NCBI GenBank assembly: GCA_045644045.1 | Contig: JAZRGD010000068.1 | Span: forward strand, 1-54,045 | From: Eubacteriales bacterium | Lineage (GTDB): Bacteria; Bacillota; Clostridia; Oscillospirales; CAG-272 | Direction: 5' to 3' | Length of the DNA: 54,045 bases | Shown: piece after piece, positions 31,611 through 46,145 of the stretch | Layout of the letters: every line of letters starts with the position of its first letter | Position numbering within the stretch: position 1 is the first letter of the stretch | Made by a program: the position numbers and the translations under genes | The notes under the pieces: generated by a model | What the model was told of the DNA's origin: nothing | The model's input: only the letters and a program-made list of their open reading frames with translations | The model's database searches: none

Positions 31611-31654
31611 CGGGGGGCTTTTCAAGGGAAAGCCCCCAAGCCTTTTTGGAAAAG
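31611..31654. repeat. Dispersed palindromic repeat, copy 1 (copy 2 at 45991-46040, inverted)
   Basis: CGGGGGGCTTTTCAAGGGAAAGCCCCCAAGCCTTTTTGGAAAAG matches the reverse complement of 45991-46040. Confidence 0.7.
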
Positions 31655-31662
31655 GAAATACC

Positions 31663-31952
31663 GTAGGGACCGACGTCGATCCGCCTAACGCGGATCGAAT
31701 CGCCGCAAAGCGGCGTTTAGCCTCCCTCCGAGAGCGAGGTGGCACGGGGCTTGCGCCGTGGCGGGAGGAGTGGGCGGCAGTAGCGGTGCGCGCGAAGGAA
31801 CGGGAGCTTGCAAAGAAAAATGAGCAAGCTTTGCTTTTTACAAACCCATTACCTTGCGCTTTTATTTGCTCTCGCTCACTCCTTCCACCACTCCGCAGTC
31901 CCCCTCCCTCTCGGAGGGAGGCTTGGTTTGCATCCGCCCGAGGCGGATCGAA
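31663..31952. mobile_element. Non-autonomous REP/MITE-like composite element
   Basis: Starts GTAGGGACCGACGTCGA; 21-bp inverted repeats with one mismatch (31719-31739 and 31903-31923); flanking direct-repeat hairpins ATCCGCC-N4-GCGGATCGAA; no transposase. Confidence 0.6.
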
Positions 31953-39757: not shown

Positions 39758-40965
39758 AGGTCACCGTCAGCGCGGGCAAGGCGAGAGGGACCGTCAAGGC
39801 CCCTCCCTCCAAAAGCATCGCCCACCGTCTTTTGATCTGCGCCGCCCTGTGCGACGGCGAGAGCCTTCTTTACGGCATTTCGGACAGCGACGACATGAAG
39901 GCCACCGTCTCTTGTCTTACCGCCCTCGGTGCCGTCTTTACCCGCGAGGGGGAGGGCTTGCGTGTGAGGGGCGTCGATCCCCGCGTCACCACCCCGAAGG
40001 GGGAGCTGTTTTGCAATGAAAGCGGCAGTACCCTCCGCTTCCTTTTGCCCGTGGCGTTGCTCTCGGGCACAAAGACCGTTCTCTCGGGCAAGGAGGTCTT
40101 ATTCCGCCGCCCCCTGTCGGTGTACGAGTCTCTCTGCGCCGAAAAGGGCTATTTATACGAAAAAACAGACGACACCGTCACCGTTAAGGGTCCCTTAACG
40201 ACAGGTGCTTATCGGGTAGCGGGCAATATCAGCAGTCAGTTTATCAGTGGTCTGCTCTTTGCCCTGCCTCTGTTGGACGGAGACAGCATCCTATCCATCA
40301 CTCCGCCCATCGAAAGCCGCTCCTACATCGGCTTGACCCTCGACGCCCTCGCCTCCTTTGGCGTAAAGGCCGTTTGGCAGGACGACCACACCCTCTTTAT
40401 CCCCGGCGGACAGCATTACACCCCCACCGAGGCGACGGTGGAGGGAGACTATTCGGGTGCCGTCTTCTTTGAAGCCCTCAACGCTTTGGGGGGAGAGGTA
40501 TCCGTCACGGGTCTGAAGGAGGACTCCTTGCAGGGAGACCGCGCCTATCTTCGCTTTATTCCCATGCTCACCCGTGGCACCCCCACCGTCCACATCGGGG
40601 ACTGTCCCGACCTTGGGCCTATGCTCTTTGCCCTGGCCGCCGCCAAAAACGGCGCGGTGTTTACAGGCACGGCGCGCCTTGCCCTGAAGGAGAGCAACCG
40701 CATCACCGCCATGGCGGAGGAGCTTGCGAAGCTTGGCACCACCGTCACGGTGGGCGGGGACAGCGTGGTGATCTATCCAAGCGATTTTCACGCGCCTACC
40801 CTACCTCTTTTCGGCCACGGAGACCATCGCATCGTGATGGCCACCGCCATTTTGGCCACCCTGACGGGCGGCGTCATCGAAGGGGCGGAGGCGGCAAGCA
40901 AGAGCTTCCCCGACTTTTTTGAAAAGCTTTCTTCTTTAGGCATTGCCATACGAGCCGAAGCCTAA
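39754..40965 (+). CDS. aroA: EPSP synthase
   Basis: PPSKSIAHR, NESGSTLRF, SSQFISGLL, KESNR, DHRI.M, KSFPDFF. Confidence 0.96.
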   Translation: MKVTVSAGKARGTVKAPPSKSIAHRLLICAALCDGESLLYGISDSDDMKATVSCLTALGAVFTREGEGLRVRGVDPRVTTPKGELFCNESGSTLRFLLPVALLSGTKTVLSGKEVLFRRPLSVYESLCAEKGYLYEKTDDTVTVKGPLTTGAYRVAGNISSQFISGLLFALPLLDGDSILSITPPIESRSYIGLTLDALASFGVKAVWQDDHTLFIPGGQHYTPTEATVEGDYSGAVFFEALNALGGEVSVTGLKEDSLQGDRAYLRFIPMLTRGTPTVHIGDCPDLGPMLFALAAAKNGAVFTGTARLALKESNRITAMAEELAKLGTTVTVGGDSVVIYPSDFHAPTLPLFGHGDHRIVMATAILATLTGGVIEGAEAASKSFPDFFEKLSSLGIAIRAEA

Positions 40966-41025
40966 CCACCACCCAAAATATGCAACCTTTGGTTTACATT
41001 TTTCTGATTTAGAAGGGTTTTCGCT

Positions 41026-42057
41026 ATGAATATGAATTTTATCCGCAAGCTCCCTATTCCCAAGGACATCAAGGAGGAGTTTCCTCTGACGGCGGCGATG
41101 GCCGCCGTCAAGGAAAAGAACGACCGCGAGATCGCGGACGTGTTTACGGGCAAGGATGATCGCTTTGCCCTCATCATCGGCCCTTGCTCCGCCGACCGCG
41201 AGGACGCGGTGCTGGAATACATCGGCAAGCTTCGCGTATTGCAGGAGAAGGTGAAGGACAGGGTGCTGATCATTCCCCGTATCTACACCAACAAGCCCCG
41301 CACCACGGGCGACGGCTACAAGGGGATGCTCCATCAGCCCAACCCCAACGAGGCCCCCGACCTCTTAAAGGGCATCATTGCCATTCGCAAAATTCATCTG
41401 CGCGCCATTGAGGAGACGGGCTTCTCCTGTGCCGACGAGATGCTCTACCCCGAAAACTACCGTTACCTCTCCGATCTGCTCTCCTACGTGGCCATCGGCG
41501 CACGCTCGGTGGAAAACCAGCAGCACCGTCTCACCGCCTCGGGTCTGGATATCCCCGTAGGTCTCAAAAACCCCACCAGCGGCGACATTTCGGTGATGAT
41601 GAACTCCATCACCGCCGCCCAACACCCCCACGCCTTCCTCTATCGCGGCTGGGAGGTGCAGACCACGGGCAACCCCCTCGCCCACGCCATTCTCCGCGGT
41701 TACGTCAACAAGCACGGAGAATCCTTGCCCAACTACCATTACGAGGATCTGCGCCACCTGTACGACATCTACGCGGAATCGGGTCTTGCCAATCCCGCCG
41801 TCATCGTGGACACCAACCACGCGAACTCGGGCAAGAAGTATCTTGAACAAAGCCGTATCGCGGGGGAGGTACTGCACAGCTGTCGCCACTGCCCCGACGT
41901 GAAAAAGATGGTCAAGGGTCTGATGATCGAAAGCTATCTGGTGGACGGTGCCCAAAAGATCGGTGCCGACACGGTGTACGGCCAATCCATCACCGACCCC
42001 TGCATCGGCTGGGACAAGACCGAAAGACTGGTGCTTGACATCGCCGATTTGGTTTGA
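41026..42057 (+). CDS. aroF: DAHP synthase, class I-alpha
   Basis: IIGPCS, KPRTTG.GYKG, AIGARS, GLKNPT, ILRG, DTNHANS, GLMIES, YGQSITDPC. Confidence 0.93.
   Translation: MNMNFIRKLPIPKDIKEEFPLTAAMAAVKEKNDREIADVFTGKDDRFALIIGPCSADREDAVLEYIGKLRVLQEKVKDRVLIIPRIYTNKPRTTGDGYKGMLHQPNPNEAPDLLKGIIAIRKIHLRAIEETGFSCADEMLYPENYRYLSDLLSYVAIGARSVENQQHRLTASGLDIPVGLKNPTSGDISVMMNSITAAQHPHAFLYRGWEVQTTGNPLAHAILRGYVNKHGESLPNYHYEDLRHLYDIYAESGLANPAVIVDTNHANSGKKYLEQSRIAGEVLHSCRHCPDVKKMVKGLMIESYLVDGAQKIGADTVYGQSITDPCIGWDKTERLVLDIADLV
41974..42057 (+). repeat. Direct repeat copy 1: last 28 codons of aroF
   Basis: 77/84 identical to 43042-43125, with a 53-bp exact core (41995-42047 = 43063-43115). Confidence 0.95.
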
Positions 42058-42072
42058 TAAAAAAAGGAAAGT

Positions 42073-42104
42073 AAAAAGGCTGTCGCACAAGCGACAGCCT
42101 TTTT
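42073..42104. terminator. Bidirectional terminator
   Basis: AAAAAGGCTGTCGC-ACAA-GCGACAGCCTTTTT. Confidence 0.85.
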
Positions 42105-42564
42105 ATATTTCTTTCTCCGCAAGGTTGTAAATTTCTTTGTTTTTTCGTTTAGCGTGTTGATACATACGATATGCTCCGCCCCACCCGTGGTCGATAAACG
42201 CGATTACTGCATCAGCTTGCTCTGCCATCCATTTGTTACGCTGTACGATCGCAAATTTAGGAGGAACATTCTCCAAAGGAGGATAAATAACCACATCATA
42301 ACCATCTTTGCGGTAATACGCACGCCGCTTTTGGTATTCTTCATTCAAATACGGCGTTACAAAAGCAAGCTTCACGCCTGCGTGCAATTTCTTATATGCC
42401 CTTGCACAAGAAAAAGAAAAATCGTCAAAAATTCCATATCCCCCAAGATACAGTATTGCTTCTTTTTCGCCTATCAGTTCTTCCAAAAGACGGAGCATTT
42501 TATTCCGAAGCTCCTGTGTTTCTACAAAGTGAGAATGTCCGCAAAACGAAATTATCATAACCAT
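42103..42564 (-). CDS. SLOG superfamily protein (DUF1273/YpsA-like)
   Basis: SFCGH, GGYG.FD, AIVQRNKWM...AD.VIA, GGA....A pattern; AT-rich. Confidence 0.7.
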   Translation of the reverse strand: MVMIISFCGHSHFVETQELRNKMLRLLEELIGEKEAILYLGGYGIFDDFSFSCARAYKKLHAGVKLAFVTPYLNEEYQKRRAYYRKDGYDVVIYPPLENVPPKFAIVQRNKWMAEQADAVIAFIDHGWGGAYRMYQHAKRKNKEIYNLAEKEI

Positions 42565-42571
42565 TTACTCC

Positions 42572-42649
42572 AATATGTAGGTGTGCCTACATATTATAGC
42601 ACACATTGCGCAAAAAATCAATAGCATTATGTAGGCGTGCCTTCTTATA
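42572..42649. promoter_or_regulatory. Twin operator-like palindromes and promoter between the SLOG and XRE genes
   Basis: AATATGTAGG-TGTG-CCTACATATT (42572-42595) and degenerate TATGTAGGCGTGCCTTCTTATA (42628-42649); minus-strand TTGATT-17-TATAAT (42593-42621). Confidence 0.7.
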
Positions 42650-42724
42650 TTTTTACGACACTGTCGCTACAATATGTGTAGTTATACCTTCTTATCTCGC
42701 TTTAAGGAAGAAAGGAGAACTACT

Positions 42725-42970
42725 TTGACTGTCAATCACGCAGTGGCACAGCGCATTTGGTCTCTACTTGAGGAAAAAGGAATGACACAGTACCGCTTGG
42801 AGCAAAAATCGGGGATCCAGCACGGCAGCCTGCAATGCATTATGAACGATCGAAACAAAACGGTAACCCTCACTACTATTTTGCAGTTGGCGCGAGGCTT
42901 CGATATGACACCCGCAGAGTTTCTCGATGACGATATTTTTCTGTCCGAGACGCTGGAAACGGAAAAATAA
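42725..42970 (+). CDS. XRE/Cro-C1 type HTH regulator
   Basis: GMTQYRLEQKSGI.HGSL..IM....KTVTL.TI.QLARGF; TTG start after AAAGGAG. Confidence 0.88.
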   Translation: MTVNHAVAQRIWSLLEEKGMTQYRLEQKSGIQHGSLQCIMNDRNKTVTLTTILQLARGFDMTPAEFLDDDIFLSETLETEK

Positions 42971-43019
42971 TTTTTTATTCACGGCAATAAATATCCACCC
43001 GCGGGTGGTATTCCGATTT

Positions 43020-43130
43020 GTAGGGACCGGCGTCGAGGGCTGTCTACGGCCAGTCTATCACAGACCCCTGCATCGGCTGGGACAAGACCGAAAGACTGGT
43101 GCTTGACATCGCCGAGCTGGTTCGATCCGC
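43020..43130 (+). repeat. GTAG-type REP-like element interrupted by direct repeat copy 2 of the aroF 3' end (43042-43125)
   Basis: GTAGGGACCGGCGTCGA + insert + TCGATCCGC, compared with uninterrupted GTAGGGACCGACGTCGATCCGC at 31663. Confidence 0.8.
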
Positions 43131-43200
43131 AAGCACGAATAAAAGAACTCCCCCGACCTCATACGAGGCCGTGAAATTTTTGCTCGGAAATATTTTTTGA

Positions 43201-45627
43201 TCAGTTGGTCTTTTCGACACCGCTGAGAGCAAGGTAATCGTTCAGCTTATCTGCAAGGATCGTACCCGAGGAATGGGTAAAGGTATGAGTCAGAATGCCA
43301 TCGGCATAGACCTTGATCATGTCGGGAACGTTGCTGTCAGACAGCACTACACCCTCGGAAATGACAGTATCCCAAGAGGAAAATCCGCCCTTGATCGCCA
43401 CGCAGCAAGTGGTATAGCCTTCATTTACGTAAGGATATCCGCCGGCGTAGGTCGTGGTGGTCAACAGAGTATCACCGCTCCACAGCTCGATCACCAAGGA
43501 CTCCTCGGCGTGAATCTTCTCCATGTCGATCTGGATCGCTTGACGCGAGCCGTTTAAGACATAAGCTCTGTAGGCAACCTTGCCGCTGGCGGCAGTCACC
43601 GTGAAGGAGCCGTCCTCCAGCTCTGCCACCCACAGCTTTTCGTTGCCCATCACGATACAATTCGAAATGTTGCCATTGGTGGGATTGGAGGAGAAGGTAC
43701 CACCGCAAAGAGTAACAACGGGATTCCTAGCCGCGTCACCCAGATTGTTTTGAATGTCAACAACCTTTCCGAGTGCCTCAAAGTCTCCGCCGTTCACGGT
43801 AACCTTCGCACCGGTATCCGCAAGGATCATACCGCGGGCAGCGGTGGCAAGCGCGTTGTCGCCGAAGTTATCGTTCTTAAAGACACCGCCGTTCACGATC
43901 AGCTCACCGCCGGAATTCAACACACCGATGACCCAAGGACCGTGAGAGGAGCCCTGACCATTTGCTTCCTCGGCAGTAAGACACTCGGTGGTAAAGGTGC
44001 CGCTGTTTACGGTGACCTTACCGCCGCCGTTGACCGAGATCGCCATAGAGTTGTAGGGTGCGGTGTACATACCCTTTTGCTCAACCAGCACGTTGTCTAC
44101 GGTGATGATCGCGCCTGCCGACTCAATGCCACCGCCGTACTGCGAATAGATCTCCGTATCCTTGATGGCAATGGTGGTGCCGCCACATCCCTTGATGTTC
44201 AGACCATTGCCTCTGTAATTGTAAAGCTTCAAGTCTACAAGCGTCACGTTTGCGGTGCCCTCGGTGCGAACGGTGCCGTACGCGCCGGAGGAATAGTCGC
44301 CCGCCGCTACCATCGTACCGTTCTTCACGGTAACCGCGGAAGCGCCCTTGATAAGCATATTGCGGCTATTCGTGCTTGCGCCGGTAGTAACGGTAAAGGT
44401 CTTTCCGTTCAGGTCGACGGTGATCTGCTTGTCAGCAATCAGCACGCCGTCCGCCTGCTCCACGCTCTGCAGGAAGGTAACGGTATCGCCCACGCCTGCC
44501 GCATCGACGGCAGCCTGTACGGAGTCGTATGCCACGCCATTTACGCTAGCAACGGCATCACCGACCTGAGCTACCTCAACCACGCAGAAGTGCAATGCCT
44601 CGTAGGAGATGGTGCCATCTGCGTTTACAACGGTGCTGGCTACCACCTTGCCGTCGTGATAGATGAGAACGGTCTCACCGGCCGCGAACACGCTCTGGGC
44701 GGGAAGAGTCACCGTAAACGCCTCGGTGTTGGCGGAAAGGTCGATCTCCTCGCCGTTCTGGTCGAGAAATTCCATGTACTCGTAGGTGATGGTCTTATTC
44801 ACCGCGTCCACCACGGGATCGGAGTGGTTGAGAGAAACGTCGGTCACTTCCGCGGGCATACCGTTCAAAACGTCTGCGGGAAGAGTGGTGGATACGCCGT
44901 TCGCGCCTGCCGCCTGAATGACGGTATCCTCAGTAGCATTGTCGGGACGGTCTACGGGAGCGGAGGTGTTGGGATAATAGCCCGCGCCGTTGTCGTAGCC
45001 GTTGTCGAAGCTGTCAGACTCGCTGGCCAGCTGAGTAGCAAGCACGGTCAGGTCGAAGTTGACCTCGCCGCCCTGGTAGTCGTTGCCTGCCTCCTCGTCC
45101 ATATGAATGGCGAGAGCGAAATAATGTACGGCGCCCGTAGCAAGCACTACGTCACCCGAAACGGCCTGAGAGCCGACCTTGACGGTGTTGCCGCCATTCC
45201 AAGCGGTAACGGAATCATACTGCGCGTCGGGAATGATGGCGTACTCCATCACCTCGTACAGATCCTTCGCCACGTTCTCAACGTTCAGCTTAACGGTATA
45301 CTTTAAGTCCAGCGTACCGTTGTTCTTGATGGCCAGGTAGGCCACCTGGGTCTTGCCGGGCTCCCAAAGGGTAGCGCCATTCTCGTCCTGGGCAATGGCG
45401 CCCGTGCCGAAGATGGGCGACGTGCTGTCGCTGATGTCCACGTAGCCGCTGCCGTCGCTGTTCATCAAAAGCTGAACGTCCAGGGTGCCCGCCACGATCT
45501 TGTTGCCCGTGCTGGACGCGGAGTCCGTAAACCAGGCAAAGGTGGTACCTAAAAGCATCGTGAAGCAGAGCAGAAGGGACAGAACGCTCGTCAGCAACGC
45601 TTTTTTGGTATGCTTCATTTTCGTCAT
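43201..45627 (-). CDS. Secreted protein with SipW-class signal peptide / TasA-CalY-like N-terminus and probable beta-helix C-terminus (808 aa)
   Basis: KKALLTSVLSLLLCFTMLLGTTFAWFTD...N.I.AGTLD, WEPG, N.G.L.LKY, AGN.YQG; later G/N/T-rich repeats (VTVNSGTF, LIVNGGVF, VTVNGGDF, VTLCGGTF); AAGGAGG RBS. Confidence 0.8.
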   Translation of the reverse strand: MTKMKHTKKALLTSVLSLLLCFTMLLGTTFAWFTDSASSTGNKIVAGTLDVQLLMNSDGSGYVDISDSTSPIFGTGAIAQDENGATLWEPGKTQVAYLAIKNNGTLDLKYTVKLNVENVAKDLYEVMEYAIIPDAQYDSVTAWNGGNTVKVGSQAVSGDVVLATGAVHYFALAIHMDEEAGNDYQGGEVNFDLTVLATQLASESDSFDNGYDNGAGYYPNTSAPVDRPDNATEDTVIQAAGANGVSTTLPADVLNGMPAEVTDVSLNHSDPVVDAVNKTITYEYMEFLDQNGEEIDLSANTEAFTVTLPAQSVFAAGETVLIYHDGKVVASTVVNADGTISYEALHFCVVEVAQVGDAVASVNGVAYDSVQAAVDAAGVGDTVTFLQSVEQADGVLIADKQITVDLNGKTFTVTTGASTNSRNMLIKGASAVTVKNGTMVAAGDYSSGAYGTVRTEGTANVTLVDLKLYNYRGNGLNIKGCGGTTIAIKDTEIYSQYGGGIESAGAIITVDNVLVEQKGMYTAPYNSMAISVNGGGKVTVNSGTFTTECLTAEEANGQGSSHGPWVIGVLNSGGELIVNGGVFKNDNFGDNALATAARGMILADTGAKVTVNGGDFEALGKVVDIQNNLGDAARNPVVTLCGGTFSSNPTNGNISNCIVMGNEKLWVAELEDGSFTVTAASGKVAYRAYVLNGSRQAIQIDMEKIHAEESLVIELWSGDTLLTTTTYAGGYPYVNEGYTTCCVAIKGGFSSWDTVISEGVVLSDSNVPDMIKVYADGILTHTFTHSSGTILADKLNDYLALSGVEKTN

Positions 45628-45718
45628 GTTATTTTTCCTCCTTATATAATATTTTTGAGTCGACGAAAAATATCTCAAACGCTTGCGCGTAAAGAGCATG
45701 ATGAGCCTCAAAATGCGT

Positions 45719-45777
45719 TTGTACATTTTGCACAAAGAAAACAACAGCCCCCCCCCCGATTTGTTGCATTTGCACAA
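45719..45777. promoter_or_regulatory. Two 17-bp imperfect palindromes separated by a C10 tract
   Basis: TTGTACATTTTGCACAA (45719-45735), C10 (45748-45757), TTGTTGCATTTGCACAA (45761-45777). Confidence 0.6.
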
Positions 45778-45819
45778 CCTCGTCGAGAAGGAGTCTATTA
45801 CCCGTTCTTTTTTCGCTTC

Positions 45820-45848
45820 ATTATAGCACGCCGCCATCATTTTTTCAA
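45820..45848 (-). promoter_or_regulatory. SigA promoter for the TasA-like gene
   Basis: Minus strand TTGAAA-17-TATAAT with extended TG. Confidence 0.7.
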
Positions 45849-46095: not shown

Positions 46096-46145
46096 AAAAA
46101 AAACAGCCCCATCACTCTGCATTACGCCGTGATGAGGCTGTTTTT
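46096..46145 (-). terminator. Terminator after the Asp-box hydrolase
   Basis: AAAAAAAACAGCCCCATCAC...GTGATGAGGCTGTTTTT. Confidence 0.7.

Follow-up and report, generated by a model that had tools for sequence, protein, structure and literature searches.

A two-gene SLOG-XRE cassette between two copies of the aroF 3' end, a candidate case of insertion with long target duplication

Why do the last codons of an intact aroF recur about 1 kb downstream, on the far side of two other genes? The question arose from a stretch of 54,045 nucleotides (nt), here called the window, which is contig JAZRGD010000068.1 (C68) of an assembly from a Eubacteriales bacterium of the CAG-272 lineage (GCA_045644045.1). 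That assembly, G000, is a metagenome bin of 2.28 Mb in 132 contigs, 93% complete and with 3.45% contamination; all of the genomes that we compared with it are also metagenome assemblies. The two genes between the aroF tails are divergent and encode a YpsA-like protein of the SLOG superfamily and an XRE-family repressor. The structure is most likely one instance of a habit of this cassette family, in which a bare two-gene unit sits at gene ends within a long target duplication. For the aroF locus itself, we give about an even chance to an insertion with long target duplication in which the upstream tail came with the cassette and the downstream tail is the displaced native one.

A repeat scan and alignment of the window gave a direct repeat of which copy A (41974-42058) and copy A' (43042-43126) are identical at 78 of 85 positions, at a spacing of 1,068 nt. 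The exact core is 53 nt long (41995-42047), and the match is far above chance (blastn E value of 7e-30 for a 71-nt core piece). Copy A is the functional tail and stop of aroF, an intact plus-strand gene (41026-42057) for a 3-deoxy-D-arabino-heptulosonate 7-phosphate synthase of 343 amino acids (aa) (Pfam DAHP_synth_1, E value of 1.8e-48), and holds its last 28 codons. The orthologues end within two codons of the same place in all 11 relatives examined. Copy A', also on the plus strand, has CGA in place of the stop and no gene body upstream; by tblastn it still matches at 26 of 27 aa. When read by codons, five of the seven differences between the copies are synonymous (GTG>GTC, CAA>CAG, TCC>TCT, ACC>ACA, and TTG>CTG), and the other two are GAT>GAG (Asp to Glu) and TGA>CGA. 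Elsewhere in G000, the A' region matches only 41977-42047, that is, it is not a dispersed repeat. The 983-nt insert between the copies holds the two genes, and the G+C content drops to 0.39 to 0.45 across 42050-42950. Profile searches with PF00589 and PF00239 found no recombinase gene in the 54-kb contig; the assembly as a whole has two tyrosine and one serine recombinase hits, all on other contigs. On these points (the repeat and its core, the kinds of difference, an AT-richer foreign islet between the copies, and no integrase) a sequence-only reading of the window had been correct.

A single aroF tail is the rule among the relatives: it was found at 11 of 11 loci, where synteny downstream of aroF was lost, and most of the 195 genomes with a hit gave one match. 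Across the 213 genomes of the genus, the only genomes with extra aroF tails were G000 and that of another species, G020, where the tail lies at a strain branch, and none of the 213 had an aroF tail copy beside a recombinase. We considered the copy in G020 (contig C3) as a second duplication but rejected it, because it is a strain branch at a contig end. There, two tail alleles (L003, at the end of C34, and L022, at the start of C3) are the same for 86 nt, then match at 88% over 208 nt, and have different genes beyond. The pattern resembles a branch between strains at the aroF 3' end, and the end of aroF may often delimit variable DNA. At a locus in yet another species (L045; G104:C65, 8291-10544), aroF is followed by a terminator, a small open reading frame, and then, on the opposite strand, a SLOG gene. 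The contig stops 300 nt beyond the SLOG gene, inside a 30-nt repeat of the SLOG start region.

Long direct repeats around small gene units have been described before. The founding paper on long target duplication is reportedly that of Nobusato et al. from 2000. According to the excerpted text of Furuta, Abe and Kobayashi (2010; PMC2853133), insertion with long target duplication is known for restriction-modification genes and is recognized by an insert of <20 kb without mobility genes, flanked by repeats of >30 bp, for which a related genome has the empty site. The same excerpts state that start or stop sites often fall within the repeats, which preserves the target gene, and that the mechanism is unknown, DNA breakage by the restriction enzyme being the suspected driver. 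The aroF locus has a repeat longer than 30 bp (85 nt), no mobility genes, an insert of 983 nt, and a repeat that is not dispersed; a single-copy empty site was found at a sister locus (G160, described below). So far as those excerpts go, the SLOG-XRE cassettes resemble the restriction-modification cases in being small gene units without a mobility gene, in having direct repeats of >30 bp that vary in length and are locus specific in sequence, in matching a single copy at the empty site of a related genome (here G160 and G143), and in having repeats that often cover the stop site and leave the target gene intact. They differ in that the cargo encodes no nuclease, and thus breakage by a restriction enzyme as suspected in that text cannot apply. 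They also differ in that the repeats are mostly whole bidirectional terminators and that the repeats in G000 and in a second genome, G176, have diverged (87 to 92% identity) and look allelic. The hosts of the SLOG-XRE cassettes are one genus of gut Firmicutes-type metagenome genomes. A literature search found no description of the long-target-duplication signature for SLOG or XRE genes. In two toxin-antitoxin reviews that contain the term, it stands only in the reference list; among the matches listed for SLOG, YpsA, and XRE, none was on mobility, and terminator-duplication phrases gave unrelated papers only.

The evidence that the aroF locus belongs to a wider pattern comes from its sister cassettes. 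The SLOG protein matched in 119 of the 213 genomes, often several times per genome, with a best non-self identity of 56%. We took 70 loci, 30 given by the search tool and 40 further down the match list, passing over matches that contained internal stops or lay less than about 2 kb from a contig end; two of the 70 were unusable for flank comparison. A divergent XRE partner lay within 400 nt at 45 of the 70 loci, and the neighbors of the cassette varied by locus and were mostly housekeeping genes. At an E value of ≤1e-3, a direct repeat between the left and right flanks was found at 12 of 70 loci versus 24 of 400 mock 900-nt segments, which were drawn from G000 only. When both repeat copies had to lie ≤120 nt from the cassette ends, 7 of the 68 usable loci, with repeats of 30 to 85 bases, passed versus none of the 400 mock segments (Fisher P of 1e-6; 7e-6 without G000).

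The repeats that flank the sister cassettes are usually alike in nature and have no common sequence. Those of L049, L051, L072, L092, L093, L099, and L106 are bidirectional terminators of 30 to 80 nt, spanning the whole hairpin with its A and T runs, and two of the pairs are 100% identical (30 and 59 nt). The insert limits at L049, L072, and L106 are 0 to 10 nt from both stop codons, and terminal inverted repeats are absent. Over nine loci, the flanking repeats are local and all different, with no common core beyond being terminators; the shortest that we counted as a target duplication is 29 nt. The repeats of G160 and G175 each occur exactly twice in their own genomes. One empty site was found: G143:C7 is 85 to 87% identical to the G160 locus, and its flanks are 54 nt apart with a single terminator between them. 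Searches for empty counterparts of the G175, G145, and G105 loci gave distant genomes and no close relative, and the nearest match to the G188 locus, in G058 (75%), has other DNA at the site. G176 provides the second case in which the repeat is a gene tail. Its 189-nt repeat has 87% identity; as in G000, the intact gene adjoins the SLOG side via a terminator, and the truncated copy lies past the XRE gene. Third codon positions hold 16 of its 25 differences (P = 0.0016), compared with 5 of 7 in G000 (P = 0.045).

Small islets between two copies of a gene's 3' end are also the mark of decayed integrative elements, the cis-mobilizable elements (CIMEs), which sit at the 3' ends of housekeeping genes such as fda in Streptococcus thermophilus. 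The aroF islet could accordingly be the scar of an element that carried SLOG, XRE, excisionase, and integrase genes into the aroF 3' end. A and A' would then be attL and attR, and the recombination genes would have been deleted later, perhaps via the repetitive extragenic palindromic (REP)-like repeat at the right junction; a related integrase could still mobilize the remnant in trans. The likeness is real: an islet without an integrase lies between two gene ends, of which the upstream copy restores the gene, and elements of this kind typically bring a replacement gene tail. One sister locus (G023:C68) has the order integrase, Xis-like gene, XRE, and divergent SLOG, and three others (in G008, G067, and G157) have a serine recombinase on the XRE side. 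In G000, XRE lies on the side of A', the expected place for recombination genes, and the DNA to the right of XRE in three metagenome runs, which is unlike the window (see below), could be element interior. Against this scenario, no recombinase is present in the contig, and a related integrase-bearing element at aroF was not found in the 213 genomes. Two of the metagenome runs are also unlike each other directly past the XRE gene. The sister cassettes, moreover, are bracketed 0 to 10 nt from their stops by unrelated local repeats, which leave no room for attachment arms; there is no attachment core shared among independent insertions across nine loci. Hence no single site-specific recombinase could use all of these repeats as attachment sites, and a lost recombinase, the first of two origins proposed by the sequence-only reading, cannot explain those loci and becomes less likely for this one. 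We regard it as unlikely, though still to be reckoned with.

Variation among strains indicated which parts of the locus move together. We compared window positions 40500 to 44700 with contigs assembled from three gut metagenome runs of two studies (X1 to X3). The body of aroF differed by 3 to 9% (differences per aligned length of 19/575 in X1; 38/542 and 21/289 in X2; and 27/296, 12/262, and 6/148 in X3). The aroF tail plus the cassette, in contrast, was about 99.3 to 99.7% identical to the window (3/901 in X1; 9/1199 in X2; and 3/204, 1/254, and 2/412 in X3). One X2 contig of 1,568 nt (record 14) links aroF (from 41793), SLOG, and XRE as far as 42991, with 9 mismatches and 10 gap positions; an X1 contig (record 6) spans 42087-42987 with 3 mismatches, and the X3 evidence is from records 22 to 24. 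On the right, the 879-aa gene beyond A' had 14/605 and 14/587 differences in X1, which matched 43508-44700 at about 97.6% identity. The aroF tail and cassette are thus roughly tenfold better conserved between strains than their flanks, which argues for recent exchange between strains. The step lies near the start of A: among the differences listed, the last ones in aroF are at 41955-41967 and the next is at 42134, the boundary being approximate. All three runs depart from the window at 42987-42996. Exact-word scans gave no hits for a 35-mer of the repeat core in the metagenome contigs or for a 32-mer of XRE in the genome and metagenome contigs.

Three further differences were seen in these runs. 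At window position 42060, X1 to X3 all lack 8 bases from the A-rich DNA that separates the aroF stop from the terminator. At 90% identity, X1 covered 43508-44700 and not the 3' end of the 879-aa gene (43201-43507). Finally, where an X1 contig enters the window at 42087, its preceding letters are 26/28 identical to the terminator region at 46096-46123, past the 879-aa gene, which hints at a different arrangement in the X1 sample. No other notable hit came from a comparison of the loose ends of the run contigs with G000 and the sister loci.

How, then, could an insertion with long target duplication have produced this locus? The moving unit would comprise a bidirectional terminator, the YpsA-like SLOG gene, a control region with three operators, and the XRE repressor gene. 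Copy A would have arrived from a related strain along with this cassette and would now complete aroF. A' would be the native tail, moved 1,068 bases off and adjoining the native convergent gene, where, freed from selection, it could have lost its stop. We infer this assignment from the third-position bias in G000 and G176 together with the passage of A between strains along with the cassette. The most likely route would be homologous recombination by the host, namely, a single Campbell-type or ends-in crossover between a tail-bearing copy of the cassette and the resident aroF, probably with a role for RecA. The 53-base identical core would be long enough for a crossover, making a dedicated integrase unnecessary; together with the 29-nt minimum among the repeats counted, it fits a single crossover by host recombination alone. 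In Campbell-type integration, a circle carrying a piece of the target integrates by a single crossover, as with suicide plasmids. As in that process, the direct repeats here would be exactly the shared homology, host RecA would suffice, and the donor and recipient repeats could differ; homology of 29 to 85 nt, however, is at the low end for RecA, and the circular form of the cassette is a conjectured intermediate. The right junction lies within a REP-like terminator repeat, parts of which resemble aroF. The sequence-only reading had already suggested that a gene tail might serve as a homology arm for integrase-free exchange, which is close to the account preferred here, except that the split repeat in which it placed the tail was not borne out. 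Its view that A' derives from a functional aroF allele likewise fits differences that look allelic, but the bias in G000 alone is weak evidence for it.

Several observations weigh against a duplication of this kind by host recombination. At five of six informative sites the closest relative, G011, resembles A more than A', so that taking A' as native rests on its position and not on its sequence. The weak third-position bias in G000 could equally reflect an old duplication in which only A has been under selection. No conspecific strain with an empty aroF site, which the sequence-only reading had proposed to look for, was found in the runs or by the exact-word scans; no A'-like copy was seen beside the cassette in X1 to X3, and beyond 42991 the X2 contig continues with 379 bases that do not resemble the window. 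Contigs from X1 and X2 give no cover at 43038-43460, which is missing support rather than evidence of absence and leaves the right junction (42992-43460) without independent support from these two runs. Tight repeats were seen at only 7 of the 68 sister loci, and 4 of 29 have a recombinase on the XRE side at a distance of up to about 3 kb. A Campbell-type event also presupposes that the donor cassette is already linked to an aroF tail, and therefore it leaves the first arrival at many loci unexplained. The first linkage to each new target might have come about via a staggered break around a terminator or an illegitimate join; indeed, the identical terminator repeats elsewhere fit duplication by a staggered break equally well.

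If a staggered break acted at aroF itself, the repeat would be a true target-site duplication: opposite-strand nicks 30 to 190 nt apart, perhaps guided by a terminator hairpin, would be followed by cassette joining and fill-in, and A and A' would have been identical at first and have diverged since. Such a process would account for first arrivals at new loci, and it agrees with the seven loci that repeat a whole terminator hairpin, with the two perfectly identical pairs among them, and with cassette ends at stop codons. At aroF it fares poorly. The fold of the 85-nt repeat is ordinary (z of -0.2 and -0.5), and the 8% divergence of A from A' clashes with the 99.3 to 99.7% identity of the cassette between strains, unless the cassette was replaced later. 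An enzyme for such an event is neither known nor encoded. We consider this origin improbable for the aroF repeat. We give a similarly small chance to a bolder form of the idea, in which the SLOG-XRE cassette would be a self-sufficient mobile element of a new kind, without transposase or integrase, whose DprA-like SLOG protein, or a recruited host activity, steers the bare two-gene unit into intrinsic terminators and gene ends, the entire hairpin or tail being duplicated in the process. If that were true, each outward-facing gene and its host neighbor would keep a terminator.

The right junction itself bears on two further explanations. The segment at 42986-43041 (plus strand) belongs, as a short variant, to an abundant family of terminator-like repeats and consists of AATAAATATCC and a hairpin at 42995-43008 followed by GTAGGGACCGGCGTCGAGGGCTGTC. 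The 17-mer at 42986 has 20 exact copies in G000 with a sharp left edge, many of them 115 to 140 nt from contig ends. The 3' half of the GTAGGG unit here has patchy similarity to the stretch of aroF immediately upstream of the repeat: GACCGGCGTCGA matches GATCGGTGCCGA at 9 of 12 positions, and GGGCTGTCTACGG is intermediate between GGGCGGTCCACG of the REP and CACGGTGTACGG of aroF. This similarity is what one would expect if homology-facilitated illegitimate recombination had occurred at DNA uptake, with one crossover in aroF anchoring donor DNA of the order aroF, terminator, SLOG, XRE, and REP and the other end joining the recipient aroF by microhomology of the REP 3' half, leaving the recipient tail as A'. 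Such an event would account for the allelic divergence of A and A', the missing recombinase, and a junction specific to G000. It would make the position of the last listed aroF differences (41955-41967), right by the start of A, a coincidence, whereas an insertion model expects it, although the boundary is approximate; and the identical terminator repeats at other loci are unexplained by it. On balance we think this route rather unlikely.

Insertion with long target duplication remains our preferred reading, and the second explanation prompted by the junction, capture of an aroF fragment inside a REP by single-strand recombination of the REP and REP-associated tyrosine transposase (RAYT) type, is largely refuted and retains almost no likelihood. 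It was the other origin offered by the sequence-only reading, in which A' was lodged within a GTAG-type REP that is contiguous at 31663, with TCGA on both sides of the insert. A GTAG-type repeat does adjoin A', but the element is not split. The GTAGGGACCGRCGTCGA 17-mer has four REP-like copies in the 2.28-Mb assembly (in C6, in C93, and at window positions 31663 and 43020). In C6 and C93 it extends as GGGCGGTCC and GGGCGGTTC, matching the window at 43037 (GGGCTGTCT), which means that nothing interrupts the element at 43020 before the repeat and that the copy at 31663 is the odd variant. Likewise, two of the three other genomic copies of the GTAGGGACCG element extend as GGGCGGTC and GGGCGGTT, like 43037; the third, at 31663-31679 of the window (plus strand), has a different hairpin module downstream. 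The supposed right half of the split element, TCGATCCGC at 43122, is a match at chance level (21 occurrences in the genome, where base composition predicts 21.1). TCGAT, which makes up five of the nine bases, is aroF homology (GGTTCGAT versus GGTTTGAT). At 31676 the same motif is the left arm of a hairpin (TCGATCCGC CTAAC GCGGATCGA), and the right arm is absent at 43122. The GTAGGGACCG unit has only four copies and a weak hairpin (z of 0.48 for 42980-43045); the other three copies are free of gene fragments, where the sequence-only reading had suggested looking for gene tails. The 93%-complete assembly gave no hit to the Y1_Tnp family (PF01797), to which Y1 transposases and RAYTs belong.

The repeats at and near this junction have features of their own. 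Most of the 20 exact copies of the family starting with AATAAATATCCACCCGC extend at least 140 nt into GC-rich hairpin modules, and many end contigs. Besides window position 42986, copies are on C7, C13, C18, C41, C43, C44, C51, C54, C76, C80-C82, C85, C87, C89, C96, C110, and C115. Four of them (C43:14525, C54:14024, C51:13351, and C51:369) have differing ends like those of insertion sequences (TGATATGCACCCC.., TGAACTGCCCC.., and TGAAGTGAACCC..) immediately following CCACCCGCATA, a pattern that would fit targeting of the hairpin loop by insertion sequences. The window has a composite array of GC-rich hairpins at 31640-31830 (DNA fold z of -2.03), modules of which recur on contigs C114, C93, C96, C81, C118, and others.

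Could the junction be an artifact of assembly that joined two strain alleles of the aroF tail? The assembly is a metagenome bin of 132 contigs with some contamination, 43038-43460 is without an independent contig in X1 or X2, and G020 does have two aroF tail alleles that branch at a contig end. The junction at 43020-43062, however, is unique and has no word of at least 21 bases in common with the repeat family or with the resident aroF, so that a de Bruijn graph would have no joining path unless real reads crossed it. The architecture also recurs in independent assemblies of other species. An artifact is therefore very unlikely in our judgment.

The order of features at the locus is aroF, bidirectional terminator, SLOG gene (minus strand), control region, XRE gene, repeat-family segment, A', hairpin, and convergent 879-aa gene. 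The intrinsic terminator T1 (42071-42106, both strands), found by a terminator scan, has 15 to 16 pairs and coincides with inverted repeat I2. The SLOG gene (42103-42564, minus strand) encodes 153 aa and matched Pfam YpsA (PF06908) below the cutoff (E value of 1e-3; 19.4 bits versus a cutoff of 27.7); a sister protein, from L032, reached 29.4 bits. An AlphaFold model built from 37 sister sequences (pLDDT of 90.1) had Bacillus subtilis YpsA (2nx2) as its best PDB match at a TMq of 0.76, followed by DprA and ShosA at 0.59 to 0.67. Judged by this predicted fold, the 153-aa protein is a member of the SLOG superfamily with a Rossmann-like SLOG fold. The modeled resemblance to YpsA, DprA, and ShosA is one of fold; sequence identity is only 14%, and the SLOG gene here, unlike that of YpsA, is paired with a divergent XRE repressor. 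The cell division role of YpsA cannot be transferred to the cassette protein. The NCBIfam and PADLOC libraries gave no match to it.

The divergent promoter region (42573-42695; family D3, inverted repeat I5) has three putative operator repeats of the TGTAGGnnnnCCTACA type, at 42576-42594, 42630-42648, and 42677-42695, and a promoter-like site on the minus strand at 42621-42593. Repeats of this type are likewise present in the sister cassettes L014, L016, and L017. The XRE-family helix-turn-helix regulator (42725-42970, plus strand) is 81 aa long from a TTG start and matched Pfam HTH_26 (E value of 1.1e-11) and PHROG transcriptional repressor families. The SLOG and XRE genes are divergent, about 160 nt apart, with the three predicted operators between them, and do not form the one operon that characterizes type II toxin-antitoxin systems. 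A terminator-like hairpin of the convergent gene was found by the terminator scan at 43151-43168 (minus strand), 25 nt past A'. The gene itself (43201-45840, minus strand), the native right flank, encodes a secreted protein of 879 aa with an N-terminal match to Pfam Peptidase_M73, a camelysin-like N terminus, and a SipW-type signal peptide; it has internal 41-nt repeats at 43777, 43876, and 43990. At a sister locus (L015; G023:C68, 1468-1915), tandem 179-nt repeats with 46-nt subrepeats lie beside the tyrosine integrase that adjoins the SLOG-XRE cassette.

What would be new here, judged from the sequences compared, is a cargo that encodes no nuclease, duplicated targets that are usually terminators, and gene-tail repeats that look allelic. 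The recurrence within one genus of a long-target-duplication signature around a nuclease-free cassette argues for a general route of gene gain, driven by the host or guided by homology or DNA structure. The tight bracketing of the sister cassettes by terminators points to a little-understood form of gene insertion that does without an integrase, for which the cassette, about 850 bases long and ending at stop codons, is a compact test object. The aroF case also illustrates how the end of a housekeeping gene can be swapped between strains harmlessly.

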